From an uncultured virus (IMG/VR IMGVR_UViG_3300037466_002099) (taxonomy: Duplodnaviria; Heunggongvirae; Uroviricota; Caudoviricetes): a stretch of 64,000 nt of DNA. Of this stretch, positions 2,793 through 64,000 are shown one piece after another. The stretch lies in the IMG/VR virus record IMGVR_UViG_3300037466_002099; one strand, written 5' to 3'. A model generated the notes under the pieces. The model was not told where the DNA came from. It searched no databases and saw only the letters and a list, made by a program, of their open reading frames with translations. Each line of letters opens with the position of its first letter. Positions within the stretch are counted from its first letter, which is position 1. The position numbers and the translations under genes were made by a program.

Positions 2793-3899
2793 ATGCGGCT
2801 GACCAAAAAGCTCCTTTCGTTCCTGCATCGGGTATTCGATAAGGATCCGACGCCATTCTTAGCGCTGCGCCTGAGCTACGGCGGCACGTCCATGACGTGG
2901 GCCGTATCGGATGCAGTCCTGAAGACGACCGTCGCCGGCGGCCCGGGCGCCAATCTTTCCGTCGACCTGAAGCAATACACGATCGCCGGGCTCGTCGCCT
3001 ATCTGGCGGCGCAGCCGGGATATTCCGTGCTCTACGCGGACACGTCCGACCTGTCCAAGCTGTCGGCGCGCGTGCTCCTCGACGCCTCGGGCGACATATC
3101 CCAGTCCAACGGCGACCATCTTTACGGCTATACCAGCGTCCTCTGGTCCTACCTCGAAGCCAGCGCGAATGAGCTCGCCAACGCCAAGGCGCAAGTCGAC
3201 GAGGCGATCAAGCAGATAACGACGGTCACGGCTTCGGGCGAGTGGCTGGACGAGCTGGGCGGCTACTATGGCGTGCCGCGCCTGCAAGGCGAGCTCGACG
3301 ATCAATACGGCCCTCGCATCATCGCCGAGGTGCTGCGCCCGCGCGCCAACAATGTCGCGATGGAAGCGGCGATTTCCGCCTACACCGGCCAGTCGACGAC
3401 TGTGACCGACGTTACGCTCTACACGCTTTCGCCTCCAATTTATAACGGCCTGTACAACTACGACGGCACGCAGCATCACAACTCGGCCTCGGTGCCGCGC
3501 TATGGCTTGTTCGATGTCCAGTACGCTTATGACTTGATCGGCGGCGGCGACATCACGGATTTCCAGCAAGTCGTGCACGACCTGATCAACCGCTTGCGCG
3601 ACGCCGGCACGCAGCTCCGCTCGCTGTCCCTGGTAGGCTCGACGATTTTTGACACGTTGACGGCGCCGACCGACAGCATGCCGGGAATGGCGGTTTCTAT
3701 TCCCCTGGACGACGCGCTGACGGCGCCGACCGAGACGACCAGCATCGCAACGAATCTTGACCTGGGGAGCGACACGCTGTCGGCACCGACCGACGACGAG
3801 ACGATCACGATTTCCTATTCGACTACCTATAACGGACTTCGCACCCACGATGGCAGCGTTCCCTATAGCAGCGGCAGCTCCATACCCGAGACACTGTAG
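2793..3899 (+). CDS. Baseplate wedge (gpI/gp48-like) protein with internal DTLTAPTD-like repeats
   Basis: TASGEWLDELG.YYGVPRL.GE.DDQY..RI motif; three D.L.APT[DE] repeats; follows baseplate J. Confidence 0.65.
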   Translation: MRLTKKLLSFLHRVFDKDPTPFLALRLSYGGTSMTWAVSDAVLKTTVAGGPGANLSVDLKQYTIAGLVAYLAAQPGYSVLYADTSDLSKLSARVLLDASGDISQSNGDHLYGYTSVLWSYLEASANELANAKAQVDEAIKQITTVTASGEWLDELGGYYGVPRLQGELDDQYGPRIIAEVLRPRANNVAMEAAISAYTGQSTTVTDVTLYTLSPPIYNGLYNYDGTQHHNSASVPRYGLFDVQYAYDLIGGGDITDFQQVVHDLINRLRDAGTQLRSLSLVGSTIFDTLTAPTDSMPGMAVSIPLDDALTAPTETTSIATNLDLGSDTLSAPTDDETITISYSTTYNGLRTHDGSVPYSSGSSIPETL

Positions 3900-3904
3900 C
3901 AAGG

Positions 3905-3919
3905 TCGTGACGCCATAAT
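3905..3919 (+). promoter_or_regulatory. Putative late promoter TCGTGA-cgc-CATAAT
   Basis: One of 9 intergenic copies with identical spacing. Confidence 0.65.
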
Positions 3920-3943
3920 CCGATCATCAACACGGAGAATGGC

Positions 3944-4414
3944 GTGGATAAACTCGTACCCGGATGCTGCTTGAACGTTAGCGACTTCGCGGAAGCGCCG
4001 AGCGGTCTATTTTTGCTCAATATTTATCGGCGCGGCGAATTGATCGAGGTTTTCGAGGAAAAGAACCTCATCGTCGACAACTCCAAGCAGATTCACGCCA
4101 AGTTGCTCGGCGGCTCCGTTTCCAATCAAAGCGTTACGCAAATCGGCTTCGGAACGAGCGGCACGGCGCCGGCGAGCGGCAATACTACGCTCACGAGCGC
4201 GTACACCAAAGCGATCGATACCGTCACCTATCCGCTGACCAATCAGGTTTCGTTCAATTTCTCGCTCGGCACGGGCGAGGCGAACGGTAAGGCCATCATG
4301 GAATTCGGCCTATTTACCGCCGGCAATACTCTCTACGCGCGCAAGGTTCGCTCGGTCGCCCTGAACAAAGATACCGACATTACGCTGTCGGGGTCTTGGA
4401 TTATTTCTTTCTAA
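3944..4414 (+). CDS. Tail fibre-associated/baseplate-anchoring protein
   Basis: KNLIVD, IGFGTSG, EANG..I.EFGLF...LYARKV pattern of tail-fibre attachment modules; GGAG RBS. Confidence 0.6.
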   Translation: MDKLVPGCCLNVSDFAEAPSGLFLLNIYRRGELIEVFEEKNLIVDNSKQIHAKLLGGSVSNQSVTQIGFGTSGTAPASGNTTLTSAYTKAIDTVTYPLTNQVSFNFSLGTGEANGKAIMEFGLFTAGNTLYARKVRSVALNKDTDITLSGSWIISF

Positions 4415-30067: not shown

Positions 30068-30129
30068 GACGCGAAAAAGCCCGCTTTTGGCGGGCCTTGG
30101 GCGGTATTCAACCTAATACAGTTGTTAGG

Positions 30130-44248: not shown

Positions 44249-44635
44249 ATGAAATCGACAATTCTCCTCTTCATTAAGTCCCGCATCGGCCCGTACCTGC
44301 GCGGCGGCCGCATAGTCGCGGGCTACGACCGCGCCGGCGGCAAGCAGGCGAAACCCGGCGCCGGCCAGCTCGCGCTGTTCATCTCCAACGATGCGCCGGA
44401 GCCCGGCGGCCCGAACCCGTTCAAGGGAAAGGATCCGGTCGCGGCGACGCCCGACCTGTTCGGCGACGACTCGCTGCTCGAGGGCTTCCCGGCCGGCGCC
44501 AAGTTCTGCGCCAACGCCGACGGTCACTGGGCGGTCTGCCACGCCGACGGCGAGCTGATCGGCAATTACATGCGGACAAAGCGTGAAGCAGCGGGAAATG
44601 CGCGGCAATTCCTAGAAGCGGACAGTAAAGCATGA
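44249..44635 (+). CDS. Putative virion-internal protein
   Basis: ILLFIKS tag and QLALF shared with the DarB-like N-terminus. Confidence 0.6.
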   Translation: MKSTILLFIKSRIGPYLRGGRIVAGYDRAGGKQAKPGAGQLALFISNDAPEPGGPNPFKGKDPVAATPDLFGDDSLLEGFPAGAKFCANADGHWAVCHADGELIGNYMRTKREAAGNARQFLEADSKA

Positions 44636-54041: not shown

Positions 54042-55796
54042 ATGACCGACAATGCCCGCTCCGTTGCCCTGAACCCCAACGCGCCTGAAGATGAGCGCCG
54101 GGACGCGATGGCCGAATTGCAGAAGTCCACGATGCCGTCGGCATTGTCGGACCTGATCCCGCGTTCCGACATTCAGCCGATCATCGACTGGATTCATCGC
54201 GACATCGAAGATCAGGCGATGGCGAAGGCATTGCAAAAACCCAATGTCATACCTTTTCCAAGCCGAGCGGCGAAGGAAAAGCAGCCGGGCATGCAGTCGG
54301 TGTGGATCGACGACATGCAAATCTCGATTCAGGGCGATTGGTTCGAAAAGCCGACCATGTTCGGCTTCGACGCGATGCGCGCGATGGTCGACCAGACTCC
54401 CATCCTGAGCTCCGTCATCATGCAGCGCATCCGGCAAGTGCAGCGCTTTTGCCGCGTGCAGGAGTCTGGCAAGGGGCCGGGCTTCAAGATCGCGCTGAAG
54501 GACAAGGACGCGCAGCCGAACGAGGACGAAAAACAGTCGATCAAGCTGATGCAGGACTTTTTCACCAACTGCGGTTGGGAGAGTAAGCCGCGCCAGCGCT
54601 TGCGCCTGAAGCGCGACGATTTCACTACGTTCATGGCAAAGCTGGTTCGCGACACGCTGACACTGGACGCGGCAGCGATCGAAACCGAGTTCAAGCGCGA
54701 CAAGTCGCTTGGCATTGACGGCCTGTACGCGGTCGACGGCGCAACTATCCGCCTGTGCACCGAAGAAGGCTACCAGGGCGACGACGAGATTTACGCGCTG
54801 CAGGTCGTGCAAGGCCGCATCCGCTCGGTCTACACCTACGACGATCTGATCTACGTGCCGCGCAACCCGCGCACAGATGTCATGATCGGCGGCTACGGCC
54901 TGTCCGAAACCGAGTACCTGATCCGCGTGGTGACCGGCTTCCTGAATGCCTTCAGCTACAACACCAAGTATTTCGACTCGAATGCCATCCCGAAGGGGAT
55001 GCTGAACCTGTACGGCAACTACACCGAACCGGATATCCAAGCCTTCAAGCGGTATTGGAATGCGATGGTCAAGGGCGTCAACAATCAGTGGACGCTGCCG
55101 GTCATGGTCTCCAAGGACGTCGAATCCAAGGCCGAATTCACGGCGTTCGGTACCGAGGTCAACGAGCTCATGTTCGGCAAGTGGATGACCCTGCTTGCGT
55201 CGATGATCTGCGCGATCTACGGCATGGCGCCGGACGAGATCAACATCGAGTCCTTTACGACCGGCACCTCGAGCCTGTCGGGTAGCGATACCGAGGAAAA
55301 GATCGCCAACTCGAAGGACAAGGGGCTGCGGCCGCTGCTGGCCTACTTCGAAAACCTCTTCACCGATTTCATCGTCGCGGAGTTCTCCGACAAGTTCGTG
55401 TTCCGCTGGACCGGGCTCGACGAGGAGGATCCCAAAGAGGCAGCCGAGCGCAAGAAGCTGTCGATGACATGGGACGAATACCGCGCGCTCGACGACCTGC
55501 CGGCGATCGGCGGCACGCTGGGCAGCGCGCCCATGAACCCGTCGCTGATCGGCGTCTGGCAGGCCGAGAACCAGCAGCAGCCGGGCGCCGACGACTTCGG
55601 CAACCCTGACCAACAGGGCGGCGGCGACGAGGGCGACGGCAACGACTTCGGCGACCCGGGTGCCAAGGCGCAGGGTGGAGGCGATTTCGGCCAGCCGCCG
55701 GGCGATGACGAGCAGGCCGCCGCCAGCGAAGAAGACGACAACGGCGAGGGCATGCAGAAAAGCTACGGCCTACCGATTTTCAAGATCGACGCATGA
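54042..55796 (+). CDS. Portal protein
   Basis: YAVDGATIR, NPRTD...GYGLSE.E, YF.SN.IPKG.L and ICAIYG..PDEIN; acidic C-terminal tail. Confidence 0.85.
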   Translation: MTDNARSVALNPNAPEDERRDAMAELQKSTMPSALSDLIPRSDIQPIIDWIHRDIEDQAMAKALQKPNVIPFPSRAAKEKQPGMQSVWIDDMQISIQGDWFEKPTMFGFDAMRAMVDQTPILSSVIMQRIRQVQRFCRVQESGKGPGFKIALKDKDAQPNEDEKQSIKLMQDFFTNCGWESKPRQRLRLKRDDFTTFMAKLVRDTLTLDAAAIETEFKRDKSLGIDGLYAVDGATIRLCTEEGYQGDDEIYALQVVQGRIRSVYTYDDLIYVPRNPRTDVMIGGYGLSETEYLIRVVTGFLNAFSYNTKYFDSNAIPKGMLNLYGNYTEPDIQAFKRYWNAMVKGVNNQWTLPVMVSKDVESKAEFTAFGTEVNELMFGKWMTLLASMICAIYGMAPDEINIESFTTGTSSLSGSDTEEKIANSKDKGLRPLLAYFENLFTDFIVAEFSDKFVFRWTGLDEEDPKEAAERKKLSMTWDEYRALDDLPAIGGTLGSAPMNPSLIGVWQAENQQQPGADDFGNPDQQGGGDEGDGNDFGDPGAKAQGGGDFGQPPGDDEQAAASEEDDNGEGMQKSYGLPIFKIDA

Positions 55797-57421
55797 AACA
55801 GCCGGGCAAGCCAAAAAAGCCGGGTGAGGGTGAGCCGCTGCCCGGCGTGACCGTCGGCGATGAGCTCTATCTGGACCATCCCGCCGGCCCGGTCACCTGC
55901 AAGGTGCTCGCGCACGGCAAGGCCGGCGTCACCGTCCACCATGAAGGCAAGCCGCACCGCGTCCGCTGGGACAAGGTGCTCGGTCACAAGAAGCGAGCCA
56001 CGCAAGCCTACAAGGTGCTCGACGAGGGCGAGGACGGCATGATCGTCGAGGATGCGCGCGGGCAGCGTCAATACCTGCACATTCCGCCGGAAGTTCGAGA
56101 GGAACAAATGGTTGTGAAAGCCGACGGCGGAAACCGCCTTGTCATTTTCATGAAGGCGGCGCCGGTGGCAAACCGCCCGGGGCTGACGAAGAAAGAAATT
56201 ACCGACAAGACCGGCCGGCATCAGACTAAATGGGTGCGCAATGCGCCGGAGGTGCACGGCGAGAAGAAGCATGCGGTACCCGACGCCGACGCTGGCGCCG
56301 CGCACGGCTACGGCACGCATAACCTGCAGGCCGGCGATCGCGTCTCGTTCAAAGCTGGTGACTTCGAAGGCTCCGGCGAGATCGTCGGCGAGCCGGGAAA
56401 GGACGGCGCTCATATCAAGGACGATTCCGGCCGCGTGCATCAAGTGCACTGGGCGGAGATTACCGGCCATGACGACAAGGGCGGCGCCGACAAGCCCAAG
56501 GTCAATTCTCAGGTGCTCGGCTCGCAGGAGCCCGTGCCGGCCGACAAGTTCAACGCCACGGAATACGCCAAGTCGCACGACAAGGCCGACGTGACGCCGG
56601 AAGAGATCCTGGCGCAGTTCCCCGAAGATACTGCCGACAAGATCAAGGCGGTTCAGGAGCGGCTTTCCAGCATCGAGCAGACGATCGACAAATACAAAAA
56701 GGACGGCAAATACAGCGATGTCCGCCGCGCCATCCATGACAAGATTTTCGATCACTTTCTCTCCGACGAGCGCATCAAAGCGGCGACGCCGGAGCCCGGC
56801 CAGAAGCCGACCTTCACCATCCTGGGCGGCCGTGGCGGGTCCGGCAAGAGCTGGTTCGAGGGCAACGTCTACGATCCGGACAAGGCGATCGTGCTCGATG
56901 CCGACCACATCAAGGGCATGCTGCCGGAGTATGAAGGATGGAATGCCGCGCAGGTCCATTCCGAGTCGGGCGATATCTTCGACGAGATTACCGCCGTCGC
57001 TCGCGAGCTCGGCCTGAATGTAGTCCACGACGCGACCATGAAGACCGCCAAAGGCGCGGTCGAGCGCGTGAATGCATTCAAGGATGCCGGCTACCAGACC
57101 GAGGCGCATTACATGCACTTGCCGCGACAGGAGGCGGCCAAGCGCGCGGTCTCCCGCTTCTTGGGCAAGACGCAGCGCTATGTGCCGGTCGATGTCGTGC
57201 TTGCCAACACCGGCAACGAGGCCAGCTTCGATCAGGTCCGCCAGATGGTGGACAAATGGTCATTCCGCGATAACAACGTCGAGCAGGGCAAAGAGCCGAT
57301 CCTGATATCGGAGAACGGCGGCGAGAACGCTGCGCGCGAAGAAAGTCAACAAAAAAGCGACAAGCAGTTGACCAAATCCGAGCAATTGCCTATGATGATT
57401 ATGTGGAGAGCGAAATCATGA
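55793..57421 (+). CDS. Head-cluster protein with C-terminal Zeta-toxin-like P-loop kinase
   Basis: GGRGGSGKS, LDAD.IK..LPEY, HSES, N.V.DATM, GY and RA..R.....RYVP. Confidence 0.75.
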   Translation: MKQPGKPKKPGEGEPLPGVTVGDELYLDHPAGPVTCKVLAHGKAGVTVHHEGKPHRVRWDKVLGHKKRATQAYKVLDEGEDGMIVEDARGQRQYLHIPPEVREEQMVVKADGGNRLVIFMKAAPVANRPGLTKKEITDKTGRHQTKWVRNAPEVHGEKKHAVPDADAGAAHGYGTHNLQAGDRVSFKAGDFEGSGEIVGEPGKDGAHIKDDSGRVHQVHWAEITGHDDKGGADKPKVNSQVLGSQEPVPADKFNATEYAKSHDKADVTPEEILAQFPEDTADKIKAVQERLSSIEQTIDKYKKDGKYSDVRRAIHDKIFDHFLSDERIKAATPEPGQKPTFTILGGRGGSGKSWFEGNVYDPDKAIVLDADHIKGMLPEYEGWNAAQVHSESGDIFDEITAVARELGLNVVHDATMKTAKGAVERVNAFKDAGYQTEAHYMHLPRQEAAKRAVSRFLGKTQRYVPVDVVLANTGNEASFDQVRQMVDKWSFRDNNVEQGKEPILISENGGENAAREESQQKSDKQLTKSEQLPMMIMWRAKS

Positions 57422-57570
57422 ACAAGATACCGAACCCCCAGCAGCGCCCGGACCTGTACGACGACTTCGATTACCCGGCCCGGCCGGAGGACCAGACGGG
57501 CGTGCAGGTTCCCGACCGCATCAAGAAGCTGGTCGAAGCCCGGCAGCAACAGAAACCGGCCAAGGAATAG
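57418..57570 (+). CDS. Small protein (50 aa) coupled to the Zeta-like gene (not in the ORF track)
   Basis: ATGA overlap and GGAG RBS; MNKIPNPQQRPDLYDDFDYP... Confidence 0.55.
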   Translation: MNKIPNPQQRPDLYDDFDYPARPEDQTGVQVPDRIKKLVEARQQQKPAKE

Positions 57571-57580
57571 CCCAGAGTAC

Positions 57581-57716
57581 GCCCGATAGCCTGTTCGGGT
57601 TCCGGTCGGGGCTAAGCGATCGGAGCACTTATACCCAGCTCCGTACTGGGTGCGCCTTGAGCGCATAGGCATGCGGATAGCGCGCATTCAGCGGGTGAAG
57701 CCCGTAGCATGGATGC
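57581..57716 (+). ncRNA. Structured RNA segment (six back-to-back hairpins)
   Basis: G-U pairs favour the + strand; complementary loops TAGCCT/GGGCTA. Confidence 0.45.
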
Positions 57717-57719
57717 AGG

Positions 57720-57751
57720 AAAAGGCCGGCGTCCCCCTCGCCGGCCTTTTT
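57720..57751 (+). terminator. Intrinsic (bidirectional) terminator
   Basis: AAAAGGCCGGCG-N7-CGCCGGCCTTTTT. Confidence 0.85.
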
Positions 57752-57756
57752 GTTTG

Positions 57757-57771
57757 TCGTGACCGCATACT
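57757..57771 (+). promoter_or_regulatory. Late promoter TCGTGA-ccg-CATACT with no ORF downstream
   Basis: Motif copy directly after a terminator. Confidence 0.65.
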
Positions 57772-57777
57772 GACGCT

Positions 57778-57903
57778 GCAACTGGGGCAGTTGCGTGGTC
57801 CCCCGCGTGCGGGCAGGTCGGGAAAAACAGCCCGCAGTGACCTCATGATCGTCTCCATCAGGGAGGTCACCGGCGCCGGGTAGCGATCCTACCCGGCGTT
57901 TGT
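57778..57903 (+). ncRNA. Putative ~125-nt late structured RNA
   Basis: Predicted +1 is the first base of hairpin GCAACT-GGGGC-AGTTGC; three more stems; ends in an 11-bp hairpin followed by TTGT. Confidence 0.6.
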
Positions 57904-57906
57904 CAT

Positions 57907-57921
57907 TCGTGACGATATGAT
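57907..57921 (+). promoter_or_regulatory. Late promoter TCGTGA-cga-TATGAT (leaderless gene)
   Basis: ATG begins after a 6-nt gap from the -10 box. Confidence 0.7.
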
Positions 57922-57927
57922 CAAAAA

Positions 57928-59109
57928 ATGCCCCTGCTAATCGACATCGAAGAGCTCACCGATGAGCAAACCGACCGCGCGCTTGACGAGCTGTGCAAGG
58001 CCACGCATGAGGGCGGCGACGACGGCTCGATATGGGATCCGGTCGACAGCCCGTTCATCCGCCGGCTGGTAGAGCTATTCACCAAGCGCGGCCTGTGGCG
58101 CCTCTCGACCCTTCAAACCGAGCTCGTCAAATGGCTCGACGGCCGGCACCACACAGGCGGCACGCCGCCGGAGCGGCCGGAAGGCTCCATGTACCGCTGG
58201 ACGCCGGGCGAGCTGCAGCTTGTGAAGCTGTACCTCGAGACGCTACCGCCGGAGCAATTCACGCTCGACGACCACATGATGCTGGTCGACTACCTTGTGC
58301 AGCGGTACCTGCCGGAAGACGACCTGCGCAGCGAAGCCGAGTGGCTGGCCGTGCGCGCAACGCTCATGGGGCGCGTGCAGGCGAACATGGAGAAGCTGAC
58401 CGCCAAGCAGGCCGATAAGGTGCTGGCCGCGCTGCCGGTCACGGTCAAGCAGGCTGAGCACGTCTTCCAGCTCGACCCAGTGCAGCGAAACATCATCAAC
58501 TTCGCCCGGGTGCGAGCGGCCGAGAACGTGTCGAAGCTGGCCGACGCCACGCGGCACCGCATGCGCGACATCATAGCCCAGCACGTTGAGGTGCAATACC
58601 TCAAGCAGCCGGGCGTGCCGGATTCGTCTCTACAAACCAAGTTGCAGGACGAGTTCCTGTCGCTGAATCGAGACTGGCGGCGCATCGCCGTCACCGAGGC
58701 GGTCGAGGCGTCGAACCAGGGTTTTATCGCGAGCCAAAAGCCGGGCTCCAAGGTGAAGCGGATCGAGCAGTACAAGGGTGCTTGCCCATTCTGCCGAAAG
58801 ATCGACGGCATGGTGCTCGAGGTTGTGCCGGCCAGTCAGCCATACAAGAACGATTGGACGATGGTATGGACTGGAAAAACGAACGTCGGCCGCTCGGCTG
58901 CGCCGCGCCGTCGCCAGGGTGGTCTGCTGATCGCCCGCGAGCCGGAGGAGATGTGGGCGCCGGCTGCCGGCGCGCAGCATCCGCACTGCCGGGGCCGCTG
59001 GCTGCCGACGATCGAGGGCGAGCCCGGCGACGACAAGGAATTTGGTGACTGGCTGCGCGCCACATTGGGAGGGAAATCAAATGGCACAGATATCGAAGAA
59101 ACTGCGTAA
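57928..59109 (+). CDS. Head morphogenesis protein (MuF/SPP1 gp7-like)
   Basis: RDWRRIAVTE...A.N.G, CPFC and HPHCRG motifs. Confidence 0.85.
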   Translation: MPLLIDIEELTDEQTDRALDELCKATHEGGDDGSIWDPVDSPFIRRLVELFTKRGLWRLSTLQTELVKWLDGRHHTGGTPPERPEGSMYRWTPGELQLVKLYLETLPPEQFTLDDHMMLVDYLVQRYLPEDDLRSEAEWLAVRATLMGRVQANMEKLTAKQADKVLAALPVTVKQAEHVFQLDPVQRNIINFARVRAAENVSKLADATRHRMRDIIAQHVEVQYLKQPGVPDSSLQTKLQDEFLSLNRDWRRIAVTEAVEASNQGFIASQKPGSKVKRIEQYKGACPFCRKIDGMVLEVVPASQPYKNDWTMVWTGKTNVGRSAAPRRRQGGLLIAREPEEMWAPAAGAQHPHCRGRWLPTIEGEPGDDKEFGDWLRATLGGKSNGTDIEETA

Positions 59110-59476
59110 CTGGAAGGGCGACGGGCGAGAGGGCTATCAGTTCTGGTGCCCTGGCTGCAAAACGCCGCACAGTGTTCAAACGAGCGAGGGCGGCTGGGGA
59201 TTTGACGGAAATGTCGACCTGCCGACCTTTACGCCGTCGATTCTCGTGCAAACCGGGCACCATATTCCGACGCATGCTGATAACGTGTGTTGGTGCACAT
59301 ACAACAAGAAGAATCCAGATAACCCGGCGCCGTTCACTTGCCGGGTGTGCCATTCGTTCGTGACGAACGGTCGCATTCAATTTTGCCATGACAGCACCCA
59401 CGAGCTCGCCGGGCAGACAGTGGACTTGCCCGACTGGCCGACGAGATATGAGCATGAAGACACTGCTGCTGATTAA
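59081..59476 (+). CDS. Cys/His-rich protein (DUF6527-like)
   Basis: FWCPGC..H, W.FDGN...PTF.PSIL and CHSFV..G.IQFC.DSTH.LAG. Confidence 0.7.
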   Translation: MAQISKKLRNWKGDGREGYQFWCPGCKTPHSVQTSEGGWGFDGNVDLPTFTPSILVQTGHHIPTHADNVCWCTYNKKNPDNPAPFTCRVCHSFVTNGRIQFCHDSTHELAGQTVDLPDWPTRYEHEDTAAD

Positions 59477-60035
59477 GGCGCATCCAGCCATCCAAGCCGC
59501 CACGCGCGCCGCGAAGCCTGCCGAGCTCAACGAGGGCGATATCCGCCGCAATCCTGGCGAGCCGTCGCGCGAGCAGGCCGAAGCCGGCAGCTACAACAAA
59601 CCGCGAGTCAAATGGCAGGGACTCACGATCGCGATCGAGAACCCGGCCGGGTCCGTCCGTCGCGGCACCAACCGCCACGGGCAGAGCTGGGAAATCCGGA
59701 TGCCATATGATTATGGCGAAGTCGTTGGCTCGATGGGCGTCGACGGCGACCCGGTGGACGTGTTCCTGGGGCCCAACCTCGAGGCTCCAATGGTGTATGT
59801 GGTCCACCAGCGCAAGGTCAATCGCTGGGACGAGTACGACGAGGACAAGTGCATGGTCGGTTTCGATAGCGAGGAGGATGCACGGGCCGCGTTCCTGGCC
59901 TGCTACAACGACCCGCGCTTTCTCGGCCCGATAACCGCCATGCCGGTCGACGAGTTCGTGCGCAAGGTGCGCGCGACACGCGACCGGCCGGCAATGATCA
60001 AGGCGCTGGTGCTGTTTGTCAGAAAAAGTCGATAA
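59448..60035 (+). CDS. Inorganic-pyrophosphatase-like domain protein of phage polyvalent proteins
   Basis: G.Y.K......GL.I.IENP.GS.R.G, DYG, G.DGD.VDVFLG and DEDK.M.GF. Confidence 0.75.
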   Translation: MSMKTLLLIKAHPAIQAATRAAKPAELNEGDIRRNPGEPSREQAEAGSYNKPRVKWQGLTIAIENPAGSVRRGTNRHGQSWEIRMPYDYGEVVGSMGVDGDPVDVFLGPNLEAPMVYVVHQRKVNRWDEYDEDKCMVGFDSEEDARAAFLACYNDPRFLGPITAMPVDEFVRKVRATRDRPAMIKALVLFVRKSR

Positions 60036-61104: not shown

Positions 61105-64000
61105 ATGCTCATTCTCTTCGCCAAATCCCAGCTAGCACTTTTCAACGCCCCTGTTCAAGTGTCTGCAACCGTTCGCAAAGATGGCACCGTTGTAAAGCCG
61201 CACATTCGTATCCAAAAAGTTGCGCTCAAGCCGCACCAGCAGGCATCGCTTTTTGGTGAGCATGTGGCGCTGGAACCAGCCAAAAAGCGCAGCAAGCTCG
61301 ACGCCTTCATCGCCAAACACGGCGGCCTGCACCGGCTGGCTTCAATGCTGGCCGGCATGACCGAGGGTCAGCAGCAGCGGATTTTCGAAGGGATGGCGAA
61401 GCTCGACGGCAAAGAGCCGGCCGAGATCGCCGCGATGTTCGATGGGCTGGCGGCGAAGGAGCCGGCCAAGGGCGAGACGGGCGATTTGTTCGCGCAACCG
61501 GCGCCTGCAGTCGAAGCAGCGCCGGCGCCGGCCGAACCTGCCGGGCCGGAGCTCGTCGAGCACGTCACCGGCAAGGGCAAGACGCTGCGCGGCGTCATCA
61601 TGCACGGCAGCAAGGAAGACGCGCAGGCGATCGACGCCTACACGTTCAAGAAGAACGGCGGCTGGTTCATCCGCGAAAAGCATTTGGTCGACGGCAAGCT
61701 GCCGAGCGCCGCCAAGGAACCCGCTGCTCAAATCGACGCAAAACAGCCGGAAACCCGCGCCAGCACTCATTCCGAGCCGCTGCCCGCCGGCCCGTTCGGC
61801 GTCCCTGCCGGCATCACCAAAACCCGCCGCCGCGAGATCAACGCGAAGGTCGTCGAGCTGGTCACGTCCGGCAAGACCGAGTTCTCCGACGAGGACCGCG
61901 CGCTGATGCGCCAGTACTCCGGCAACGGCGGCTGCGGCGACTCGCTCAATGAGTTCTATACCGACCCGGCCGTGGCGCGCGCCATGTGGGATGTGCTGGG
62001 CAAGCTGGGCGTTGCCAGCGGCACCGCGCTCGAGCCGTCGTGCGCAACCGGCGTCTTCTTGCATACTGCGCCGGCCGGCTTCAAGGTCACCGGCGTCGAG
62101 CTGGATCCGACCTCAGCCAAGTGCGCCGAGGTGCTGCACGGCGACCGCCACGAAATCATCAACGCCAGCCTGGAACGCTTCGCCACGCAAGACGGCGATC
62201 GCCAGTTCGACGTGGTGATCGGCAACGTACCGTTCGGCCTGCGCGGCTCGCTGCTCAAGGACGACAAGCCGACGCTGAAGACCGCCGAGGGCTATTTCCT
62301 CGATACCGCGCTCGACAAGACCCGCCCGGGCGGCGTGGTGGCGCTGATTGTGCCGACAGGCGTCATGGATGCCAAGTCGCAGCGCGGCCTGCGCGAGCGG
62401 CTGCTGCGAAAAGGTGAATTCCTGGGCGCGGTCCGCATGCCCAACACGGCATTCGAGCACTCCCATACCGAGGTGACGACCGATATCGTCTTTTTCCGCA
62501 AGCGGGCCGATGACGTGGCCGGCGCGCTGATGACGGTCAAACAGGGCACGCTCAAAGACCTCGGCGTGTGGGACGAGGACTATCTGTCCGGCGCTTATTT
62601 CGAGACGCGCGGTGCCGATAGCATTTTCGGCACGATGGAGGCCGGCTGGCGAGCCAAGGCCGGCATCGGCCAGGACATTACCGTCTCCGGCTCCATGCGC
62701 GGCGTGCCGGAATCGATCGCCGCCTGGACGCCGGACGAGGTGACGGCCGCGACGCCAACGGTACCGGACATCCTCGGCAAGCTGGATGAGGCCGGAAAGA
62801 AGCGAGCGCTCGGCGCCGCGCTGAAGAAGCCCTACGACACATCCAAGCCGGGTGACACCAAGGCAGTCGATGGCGTCACCTACATATTGCAGGGCAAGCC
62901 GCCGCGCTGGCACCGTATCGACGAGTTCCTGCAAGACGCGGGCATTTCCGACGCGCAGCCGATCGCCGCCGAGATCGAACGCATGTTCAACGGCCAAGCC
63001 GTCGACCGCCCGGCGCTCGAGGCGGCCGTGCGCGCGTATGTCGAAAAGCACGGCATCCCGGGCAAGAACCCGAACCTGAACCTTGCCGCCTCGCAGGACA
63101 AGACGCTGTACCGCCTGATCGGTGCCGTCAATCCGGACGGCACGATATCGGACGCGGTTGCTGGGCGCGGCGCGCGCAAGGTCGAGGGCTCGCTGGATAC
63201 GGCGGCCGTATCGCTGTCGCTCGAGCGCGATTCCGGCACGTTCTCGGTGGCCGAGCTCGCCGACCGCATCGGCAAGGATGTCGAGGAGGTCGAAGATACG
63301 CTCTTCGCCTCTCCGGCCTATGCCTATGCCGGGTCCGGCCAGTGGACCACGATGGACAATTACCTGACCGGCGAGCTGTGGCCGAAGCTGGACGCGGTGA
63401 AGGCGGAGGTGGCGCGCGGCGACCTGCGCGACGGGCTGGCCGAGAAATATGCGATGCAGGCCGCCAAGCTGGAAGAGACGATCGACCCGAAGTCGCTCGA
63501 AGATGTCGAGGTCATGCTGAACTCGGCATTCGTGCCGACCGACATCCTTGCAGCCTACTTCAACGAGCGGAAAGCCGCGTCGGACAACGACTGGGTGCGC
63601 AAGCTGCCGGACGTGAAAATCACGTTCAACGGCGGCGTCTATACCGTCGAGGGCGGAAATCAGCACGGCGAGATGAGGTTGCTCGACAAGTACCTGAACC
63701 GCACCGGCGTCAAGAAAGACGACATGCCGCAGATCGAGCAGATGAACGCCGATTTCAAGGCGTGGCTGCTGTCGTCGCGGTACCGCGATCAGGTCGAAGA
63801 ACTCTACAACCGCAAATTCCGGGGCTTCCGCCAGCGCGATTTCTCGAATGCGGCGATCGCCATCCCGGGCATGAATACCGAAGGGCTGAAGGATTACCAA
63901 TATGGCGGTCTGCGCTGGGCGCTGGCTGCCGGCAAGGGCATCATCGCCGCCGACGTGGGTCTGGGCAAAACCGTGCGCGGCCTGATGCTGGCGCGCATGG
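61105..64000 (+). CDS. DarB-like adenine methyltransferase/SNF2 helicase polyvalent protein (3'-truncated; absent from the ORF track)
   Basis: Frame open to the window end; QYSG.GG, EFYT, LEPSCATG.F, GVELD, FDVVIGNVPFG, R.PN.AF and TDI.FF.KR; helicase start KDYQ...DVGLGKT. Confidence 0.88.
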   Translation, partial: MLILFAKSQLALFNAPVQVSATVRKDGTVVKPHIRIQKVALKPHQQASLFGEHVALEPAKKRSKLDAFIAKHGGLHRLASMLAGMTEGQQQRIFEGMAKLDGKEPAEIAAMFDGLAAKEPAKGETGDLFAQPAPAVEAAPAPAEPAGPELVEHVTGKGKTLRGVIMHGSKEDAQAIDAYTFKKNGGWFIREKHLVDGKLPSAAKEPAAQIDAKQPETRASTHSEPLPAGPFGVPAGITKTRRREINAKVVELVTSGKTEFSDEDRALMRQYSGNGGCGDSLNEFYTDPAVARAMWDVLGKLGVASGTALEPSCATGVFLHTAPAGFKVTGVELDPTSAKCAEVLHGDRHEIINASLERFATQDGDRQFDVVIGNVPFGLRGSLLKDDKPTLKTAEGYFLDTALDKTRPGGVVALIVPTGVMDAKSQRGLRERLLRKGEFLGAVRMPNTAFEHSHTEVTTDIVFFRKRADDVAGALMTVKQGTLKDLGVWDEDYLSGAYFETRGADSIFGTMEAGWRAKAGIGQDITVSGSMRGVPESIAAWTPDEVTAATPTVPDILGKLDEAGKKRALGAALKKPYDTSKPGDTKAVDGVTYILQGKPPRWHRIDEFLQDAGISDAQPIAAEIERMFNGQAVDRPALEAAVRAYVEKHGIPGKNPNLNLAASQDKTLYRLIGAVNPDGTISDAVAGRGARKVEGSLDTAAVSLSLERDSGTFSVAELADRIGKDVEEVEDTLFASPAYAYAGSGQWTTMDNYLTGELWPKLDAVKAEVARGDLRDGLAEKYAMQAAKLEETIDPKSLEDVEVMLNSAFVPTDILAAYFNERKAASDNDWVRKLPDVKITFNGGVYTVEGGNQHGEMRLLDKYLNRTGVKKDDMPQIEQMNADFKAWLLSSRYRDQVEELYNRKFRGFRQRDFSNAAIAIPGMNTEGLKDYQYGGLRWALAAGKGIIAADVGLGKTVRGLMLARM

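Follow-up and report, generated by a model that had tools for sequence, protein, structure and literature searches.

We describe here a predicted small-RNA gene, RNA-B, in a 64,000-nucleotide stretch of DNA from an uncultured soil virus of the Caudoviricetes (IMG/VR record IMGVR_UViG_3300037466_002099), which was analysed at its full length and is called the window below. RNA-B lies within the interval 57571-57927, bounded on one side by a 55-aa open reading frame (ORF) that ends at 57570 and on the other by a 393-aa gene that starts at 57928. Upstream of the interval are a portal gene (54042-55796; Pfam PF04860, E = 1.6e-20) and a gene for a 542-aa protein with a Zeta_toxin/AAA_33 kinase domain (55793-57421; Pfam, 5.7e-21). 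The 393-aa gene is referred to as MuF-like. This label is weak, as Phage_Mu_F matches at E = 0.088, under the Pfam cut-off, in 3/9 homologues of the protein; the Thermus and Morganella homologues are labelled ‘minor head protein’ by their depositors. An earlier note on this DNA had placed the element between a portal/Zeta unit and MuF, and of these assignments the portal and the Zeta domain were confirmed, whereas MuF stands on the sub-threshold match just given.

The same note had described a dedicated unit for a structured RNA in this head cluster, running from its own promoter to a 3′ hairpin, with a terminator before it and a second promoter behind it. All three signals are present, and the promoter, the fold and a syntenic family of relatives agree with that description. 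Coordinates are collected in Table 1.

Predicted fold of RNA-B

Positions 57778-57903 fold with a minimum free energy (MFE) of -64.5 kcal/mol (z = -3.84), and none of 200 shuffles was as stable. The reverse strand is equally stable (-62.8, z = -4.56), so the strand is not given by one sequence alone. From 5′ to 3′, the architecture comprises a variable 5′ hairpin at +1, a pseudoknot built from stems S1 and S2, the near-invariant CCGCAG (ending at 57837 in the window), hairpin P5, an optional hairpin P6 and the terminal hairpin P7. The four stems recognised in the earlier note, namely the 5′ hairpin, S2, P5 and P7, recur at the same places. P5 carries an A.G-plus-bulged-G motif together with an exposed pyrimidine tract, CGUCUCC at 57850-57856, which the predicted structure of the window copy leaves unpaired. 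At the 3′ end, the hairpin with a short T tract that had been described is present and covaries, but only TTTGT stands behind it, and the terminator scan did not call it a terminator.

Table 1 Features of the RNA-B locus, in window coordinates
Feature	Position	Strand	Basis and remarks
RNA-A, second conserved structured RNA: P1-P3, pseudoknot, P5	57576..57752	+	Covariance model R2, covariation; ends in strong terminator
Intrinsic terminator, 13-bp stem (57719-57751, 8 G-C), T run	57719..57756	+	Terminator scan; closes the portal/Zeta-domain/55-aa unit and RNA-A
Promoter of RNA-B, G-TCGTGA-C-CG-CATACT-GACGCT, predicted +1 G57778	57756..57777	+	27/27 family members; TCGTGAC-CG-CATACT at 57757-57771
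RNA-B, 126 nt to short T tract	57778..57903	+	Covariance model R1, 57.9 bits, E about 1e-13; MFE fold
5′ hairpin, begins at +1	57778-57794	+	Fold; variable across family, often GNRA-capped
Pseudoknot stem S1, CCCG 57802-57805 with CGGG 57819-57822	57802..57822	+	Covariation, alignment A4
Pseudoknot stem S2, GCGGGC 57809-57814 with GCCCGC 57830-57835	57809..57835	+	Covariation, alignment A4
A-rich loop 3, AAAAACA	57823-57829	+	Pseudoknot architecture
P5 hairpin, GTGACCTC / GAGGTCAC, 57837-57844 with 57863-57870	57837..57870	+	Covariation
Terminal hairpin P7, 11-bp stem (57873-57899) and TTTGT	57873..57903	+	Weak terminator; covariation
Second promoter, same class, TCGTGAC-GA-TATGAT-CAAAAA	57907..57927	+	Motif scan; motif itself 57907-57921
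MuF-like minor head protein gene, 393 aa	57928..59109	+	ATG at predicted +1, Phage_Mu_F match, depositors’ labels

RNA-B belongs to a conserved, covarying family

Relatives were sought in loci fetched through alignment of the MuF-like protein (the best 80 viral-contig, the best 80 metagenome and 31 bacterial-assembly loci), to which nine annotated phage regions were added. The family search used iterated nhmmer and then a covariance model, R1. Among the first four viral loci, two (L004 and L005) showed the same promoter motif before the MuF-like gene, and then an RNA with the same core. R1 finds RNA-B in 31 distinct loci at E < 1e-4, once in each and upstream of a MuF-like gene; four of the 31 are divergent or partial members (L025, L056, L075 and L095, the last with the 3′ part only). 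Two further new loci lie in bacterial assemblies, a Paraburkholderia and a Mesorhizobium metagenome-assembled genome, so that the syntenic structural homologues left to be sought by the earlier note number 31 distinct loci plus these two. The contigs of Caballeronia pedi LMG 29323 (L173) and Nitrosomonas sp. Nm132 (L175), which are assemblies of cultured bacteria that hold RNA-B relatives, duplicate viral-contig loci already counted. RNA-B was detected in metagenomic contigs and in contigs of four bacterial assemblies only. RNA-B and the MuF-like gene are separated by another gene in L018, L019, L021 and L034. In L034 a tRNA-like end was also seen by eye at ~420-460 (GGTTCGAGTCC...CCA-like), just before the terminator and promoter of RNA-B.

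A single R1 match per genome was found in all five complete or nearly complete contigs (95-100%, CheckV estimate), and the window has one match plus a weak one at E = 0.28. Being single-copy, RNA-B is not a repetitive extragenic palindromic (REP)-like or other dispersed repeat. A match to a known Rfam family, which together with a REP-like repeat had been named as evidence to the contrary, was not found either: cmscan of positions 55000-60000 against Rfam 15 (E <= 10) gave nothing within 57778-57903, and the syntenic regions of seven relatives gave no match at E <= 10. The nearest models, Thr_leader (22.7 bits, threshold 55) and STnc390 (17.2 bits, threshold 50), coincide with the upstream terminator (57663-57757) and lie outside RNA-B. 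A blastn search of 57571-57927 against 50,697 phage records found no match, and the exact RNA-B core pattern had 0 matches in 185,579 species genomes. The accessible parts of the literature searched, PMC9503643 included, contain nothing on RNAs or promoters of these phages. Judged by Rfam 15 and by that portion of the literature, the RNA-B family appears not to have been described before.

The 31 members were aligned (alignment A4) by fitting them to the nested helices of the model, which favours those helices; S1 lies outside the model used for aligning. In A4, 91.6% of 801 cells are paired, compared with 70.7 +/- 1.0 in shuffles, and the covariation score of 0.470 (0.130 in shuffles) was reached by 0/500 of them, while slid partners scored at most 0.083. 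Both sides change in 21 of the 29 pairs. The inner pair of S1 (A4 columns 38/54) is GC in 18 sequences, CG in 5 and GU in one. Its outer pair (columns 35/64) is CG in 3 and AU, GC and GU in one each, and is unpaired, mostly A.G, in 21; the six sequences in which it is paired are those where GGG changes (L019, L021, L111). S2 (helix 3) is 97.9% paired, with a fifth pair that appears as UG (13), GC (5), AU (3), CG (3) and UA (1). Compensatory changes occur in five of the six pairs of the outer stem of P5, where 99.4% of cells are paired, in nine of the ten pairs of P7 (helix 6), and in two of the four pairs of P6, a small hairpin that the window and ten other members lack. Counted from the 3′ tails, a run of at least three T follows P7 in 14/31 members.

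Two loop-loop pairings suggested by the earlier note do not hold in this comparison. The CCCC proposed as partner of the GGGG loop in the 5′ hairpin is S1 of the covarying intramolecular pseudoknot, and the 5′ GGGG loop is not conserved, being of GNRA type in other members. No covariation supports the pairing of loop GGGA with UCUC: in L019, L021 and L111, which have GGU or GGC in place of GGG, UCUCC is left as it is and the upstream strand changes. Outside the stems, the blocks conserved in the family are CCGCAG, GGGAAA and the pyrimidine tract, and the A-rich loop 3 is of the GGGAAAUAAAG type. The tract reads CUCC, UUCC or UCCU in 29 of the 30 members having the P5 interior, with CUCC in 24/30, and is displayed by P5 across the family in forms such as UCUCC, CCUCC and UCCUUUCC. 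The tract of longer members is placed in a hairpin loop or at a P5 junction, the junction being our reading of the sequences.

The family also indicates the strand, with 57 G.U cells against 21 A.C cells pointing to the + strand; the orientation of the promoter agrees. No reading frame is conserved, since frames are stop-free in at most 11/31 members on the + strand and at most 15/31 on the - strand. The segment had been called ORF-free. This is right in that no frame is conserved in the family, and not right to the letter, as a 77-aa GTG frame (57650-57883, no Pfam match) overlaps RNA-B on the + strand and frames of 60, 50 and 32 aa exist on the - strand. One of these was considered as a small antisense ORF. 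The complement of the P5 loop (57843-57858, - strand) reads GGAGA-N6-ATG and would start translation of a part of the 60-aa frame at 57688-57870; this candidate was rejected, as L004, checked by eye, is without the start and no - frame is open in more than 15/31 members.

The same comparison bears on the reading that the locus has no RNA function, and is instead a run of terminator or insulator hairpins between units, or a site acting at the DNA level (pac, origin or protein-binding). Such a reading would suit an element placed between a terminator and a promoter, whose window copy has perfect Watson-Crick stems and folds alike on both strands. It does not account for the conserved blocks outside the stems, the covarying pseudoknot, the excess of G.U over A.C or the dedicated promoter at fixed spacing in 27/27 sequences. 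A hairpin array needs none of these features, and we regard this reading as highly improbable.

A promoter class that places start codons at the predicted +1

Each of the 27 distinct sequences in the initial collection has TCGTGA ~21 nt upstream of RNA-B. At fixed spacing, G-1, TCGTGA, A+10, A+12 and T+14 (numbering of the promoter alignment) are invariant in 27/27, position +20 is a pyrimidine in 27/27 and position +21 is G in 22/27. The promoter can be read as a -10-like nAnAnT hexamer, the T of which is followed 7 nt on by a Y/R start, together with a phage-specific element at -22 to -16. A 6-nt rule had been used in the earlier note to set +1 at 57778; the fixed spacing of Y-1/G+1 bears this out, as do three window genes with ATG at their predicted +1.

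In the window, the heptamer TCGTGAC alone is not enriched (10 found, 9.35 expected); CGTGA-N4-A-N3-T, which takes in the -10-like element, occurs at 13 sites compared with 5.6 +/- 2.2 in mononucleotide shuffles. At 3 of the 13 sites, ATG lies exactly at predicted +1. These are an ORF at 44249, the portal gene at 54042 and the MuF-like gene, where the predicted +1 of the second promoter is exactly ATG 57928, and the corresponding mRNAs would be leaderless. Most relatives likewise have the -10-like hexamer, six bases and then ATG at their MuF-like genes. Matches to the class G-TCGTGA-Y-N2-nAnAnT were noted in the window at 3906, 8410, 38678, 44229, 45442, 54022, 57758, 57908 and 61062 on the + strand and at 30068 on the - strand. 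Other units of the promoter class have leaders of 18-24 nt, several of them without a clear Shine-Dalgarno (SD) site.

The class precedes portal, MuF-like, holin, peptidase and exonuclease genes. A ‘late’ timing of RNA-B is plausible because portal, MuF-like and holin genes have this promoter class in common; the exonuclease gene has it too, so the timing is not established.

RNA-B has its own promoter, a 3′ hairpin, no conserved frame and conservation in relatives, the features by which a small-RNA gene is recognised. On this sequence evidence, we put the probability that 57778-57903 encodes a structured non-coding RNA as a gene of its own at roughly 0.9. RNA-B is not a plain leader of the MuF-like gene, given that an exact TCGTGA separates it from the next gene in 23/27 relatives and that another gene intervenes in four loci.

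These two observations also count against a cis-acting, riboswitch-like attenuator, in which the pseudoknot would set a stop at P7 against read-through into the MuF-like gene. Such a device is suggested by the H-type topology with its A-rich loop 3, by the terminator-like hairpin behind the pseudoknot and by the constant position upstream of a head gene on the same strand, and read-through is likely in the 17/31 members whose P7 has no T run. The MuF-like gene, however, has its own promoter between P7 and the ATG, with that ATG at +1. Moreover, no alternative (antiterminator) pairing was noticed in the alignments and no Rfam riboswitch matched, which makes control in cis improbable.

A second RNA family, RNA-A, occupies the same slot

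The window carries a second conserved structured RNA, RNA-A, matched by covariance model R2 at 57576-57716 (73.1 bits, E = 4.5e-19); of this RNA, the earlier note had picked out the terminator alone. The RNA-A alignment was made with MAFFT from 32 distinct sequences and fitted to no structure. It has compensatory changes in 18/18 RNAalifold pairs and in 6/6 pairs of the pseudoknot; with P5 and the pseudoknot included, 89.8% of cells are paired (68.3% in shuffles), and the covariation score is 0.573 (0.199 in shuffles). No Rfam match was found for RNA-A, and 7/32 members have their own TCGTGA promoter. Carriers include the cultured phages Dolphis, Jeremy, Touem01, ST4, fHe-Yen8-01, phiT5282EW and ECML-606-1, spanning Pseudomonas, Aeromonas, Yersinia, Enterobacter and E. 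coli.

RNA-A resembles RNA-B in slot, strand and promoter class (7/32), and in having a pseudoknot followed by CGCAG and a P5-like hairpin. It differs in its extra hairpins P1, P2 and P4, and in showing no clear anti-SD tract. The models do not cross-match, with no R2 match on RNA-B at E < 0.1 and no R1 match on the RNA-A of the window at E < 1; the single weak R1 match to RNA-A is in L039 (E = 0.015). With a common topology and a similar ...ACAGC..CGCAG..ACC stretch, the two may be homologous; they are kept here as separate families.

Among 127 non-redundant loci, 36 hold RNA-A only, 29 RNA-B only, two hold both (the window and L015) and 60 neither. Some of the last group are truncated, and others hold divergent RNA-B-like or other promoter-driven units. 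RNA-A is absent genome-wide in four of the five complete or nearly complete (95-100%) RNA-B genomes. RNA-B is absent from all five cultured genomes tested, four of which hold RNA-A in the slot. The two RNAs are mostly mutually exclusive.

Additional RNA families may be present in the slot between the portal and MuF-like genes. L033 and L110 have divergent RNA-B-like cores missed by R1. Different ORF-free promoter-to-hairpin units, or long noncoding stretches, were seen before the MuF-like gene in L049 (~1235-1330), L065 (~1345-1475) and L003 (~3140-3990, ~850 nt), and upstream of 1501/2501 in L067 and L156.

Candidate roles of RNA-B

As an example of a morphogenesis-linked RNA, the earlier note had offered an analogue of prohead RNA (pRNA). 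RNA-B would then act on the portal, or be packaged with internal proteins. Its place between the portal and MuF-like genes, with which it shares a promoter class, is in keeping with this, as are neighbours that look like virion cargo (an InPase-domain protein and a large N6-methylase, see below). On the other side, no Rfam family matched, and Rfam presumably includes the phi29 pRNA model. The proposed intermolecular loop pairs do not covary, one strand being engaged in the intramolecular pseudoknot. Phages PHB04, whose MuF-like protein is 63% identical, and Mecenats66 have neither RNA-A nor RNA-B (for Mecenats66, R1 was run on locus L013 only, not the whole genome; positive controls matched), so neither RNA is needed by the head and packaging machinery of the lineage. 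That machinery includes an ordinary terminase, seen in annotated relatives and also in the available part of PMC9503643. The pRNA analogy is not borne out, and a morphogenetic role in general is very unlikely.

The reading that we prefer, with a probability of roughly 0.35, is that RNA-B acts in trans through an anti-SD-like tract, lowering SD-led translation while sparing leaderless head genes. A rigid scaffold of pseudoknot and P5 would display the pyrimidine tract, a sequence similar to the anti-SD end of 16S rRNA. By pairing with ribosome-binding sites of the GGAG type, the tract would lower the translation of SD-led messages. The portal and MuF-like genes, with ATG at +1 and no leader, would escape. 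Base pairing through the tract is favoured because the tract is the one constant single-stranded feature and because leaderless head genes would be immune; the lack of covariation between the tract and the GGGA segment is counted on the same side. Masking or cutting of GGAG sites by phages is known, as are ‘CUCC’ seed loops in small RNAs.

Several observations weigh against this proposal. The loop complement ATGGAGACGAT has no exact site in the window except on the opposite strand of RNA-B itself, and with at most two mismatches there are 26 window sites compared with 16 expected, none of them outstanding. The pseudoknot, the A.G/bulge motif and ~40 conserved bases exceed the needs of a simple antisense RNA, and such complexity would equally suit an RNA that binds a protein or a ligand. 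In most relatives the place of RNA-B is taken by RNA-A, which shows no equally clear anti-SD tract. Three RNA-A carriers, phage fHe-Yen8-01 and, judging from their sequences, phiT5282EW and ECML-606-1, have GGAGA immediately ahead of the MuF-like gene, which means that the link to leaderless genes does not hold generally. At 57.9 bits, the window copy is the lowest-scoring clear RNA-B member, and it lacks P6, which 20/31 members have. Finally, the six sequencing runs that hold the stretch are all DNA metagenomes, with no RNA run among them. Reads of four of the DNA runs gave identical or fragmentary contigs only, with no variants inside RNA-B.

The complexity of the fold leads to a further alternative, a protein-binding decoy or sponge, in which the pseudoknot, the A.G/bulged-G motif and the tract would bind a host or phage protein that is titrated or recruited late. 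Ribosomal protein S1, Hfq and a defence sensor are candidate partners. Ribosomal protein S1 binds preferentially to pseudoknots and to pyrimidine-rich single strands, and leaderless mRNAs can do without it. A complex, conserved and covarying fold with many invariant unpaired bases is what such an RNA would present, and no base-pairing target was found in the window. RNA-A and RNA-B, moreover, look like interchangeable RNAs occupying one slot (4/5 and 5/5 exclusions). No partner protein is known, however, and we consider the decoy possible but on balance unlikely.

The anti-SD reading could be widened, though we are doubtful of this form, to make RNA-B (and RNA-A in sister phages) an RNA that is made along with the head genes and reprogrammes host translation away from SD-led messages and toward the leaderless mRNAs of the phage, whether by anti-SD mimicry or by soaking up ribosomal protein S1. 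In a second bold reading, the RNA would be packed into phage heads alongside internal cargo proteins and so reach the next cell. Phage small structured RNAs are of a known kind; what is new is the fold, the promoter class and a possible connection with leaderless translation.

Flanking genes and related phages

The window phage is a relative of Bordetella phage PHB04 (Phabquatrovirus), and further relatives are ~90-kb phages of Pseudomonas, Aeromonas, Yersinia, Enterobacter and E. coli. Different phages carry different accessory genes after the portal, ahead of the RNA or MuF-like gene. The window has the Zeta_toxin/AAA_33 kinase-domain protein there, PHB04 (L001 3727-5000) has (p)ppGpp synthetase/hydrolase and Ser/Thr phosphatase genes back to back, and Touem01 (L008 1848-3233) has a GDSL lipase. 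On the other side, 3′ of the MuF-like gene, lies a gene for an InPase-domain protein (PF18823; 59388-60035) with PHROG matches to minor head, virion and DarB-like proteins. Positions 61105-64000 encode a very large N6-adenine methylase. By sequence, these two proteins look like head-packaged anti-restriction cargo.

A relative in Microvirga lupini AT3.9 (L176) lies within a 1.44-Mb contig and has RNA-A. This copy is apparently integrated, and some members of the lineage may accordingly be temperate. In Touem01 (L008), the deposited ‘hypothetical protein’ coding sequence (CDS) Touem01_00051 (3227-3472, - strand) lies opposite RNA-A (3276-3430) and is probably an annotation artefact. In Yersinia phage fHe-Yen8-01 (L010 2501-2549), the tblastn match to the MuF-like protein begins 48 nt before the annotated start codon; ATT ATT opens the stretch after GGAGA, and the true start may be a non-standard codon.

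Significance

Phage non-coding RNA families with comparative support for their structure are few. Here, two well-supported pseudoknotted families are found in one head-module slot of a widespread ~90-kb phage lineage of soil, water and gut. With RNA-A present in cultured phages and RNA-B in contigs of cultured Caballeronia pedi and Nitrosomonas, their function is directly testable. The promoter class G-TCGTGA-Y-N2-nAnAnT places start codons at +1 and thereby predicts leaderless head-gene mRNAs in phages of Proteobacteria; from this comes the testable idea of a link between the RNA and leaderless translation. The analysis also corrects annotation, as at least one deposited CDS sits over RNA-A.

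Comparison with known systems

Like the pRNA of the phi29 family, RNA-B is a phage-encoded structured RNA (~120-170 nt in the case of pRNA) that is positionally tied to head genes, and its larger members, as we read their sequences, have a three-way junction inside P5. It differs in having no Rfam match and no covarying intermolecular loop-loop pair, in being dispensable within its lineage and in occurring alongside a conventional terminase. To our knowledge, pRNA has no H-type pseudoknot core of the RNA-B kind.

The antisense RNAs of P1/P7 c4 and P4 CI (Rfam ‘C4’) are also small structured phage RNAs with their own promoter, and the exposed loops of RNA-B could pair with a ribosome-binding site, as theirs do. 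In contrast to the C4 RNAs, RNA-B matches no Rfam family, shows no sign of processing from a precursor, has had no target found in the window and has a different pseudoknot architecture. The preQ1-II and SAM-II aptamers share with RNA-B an H-type topology, an A-rich strand along stem 1 and a terminator-like hairpin behind it. RNA-B differs from them in lacking an Rfam match, and in that its downstream gene has its own promoter and is predicted to be leaderless, so no expression platform is evident.

By functional analogy only, RNA-B would also stand beside the RegB endoribonuclease of T4, a phage device directed against GGAG SD sites. RegB is a protein nuclease that cuts such sites, whereas RNA-B would mask them.

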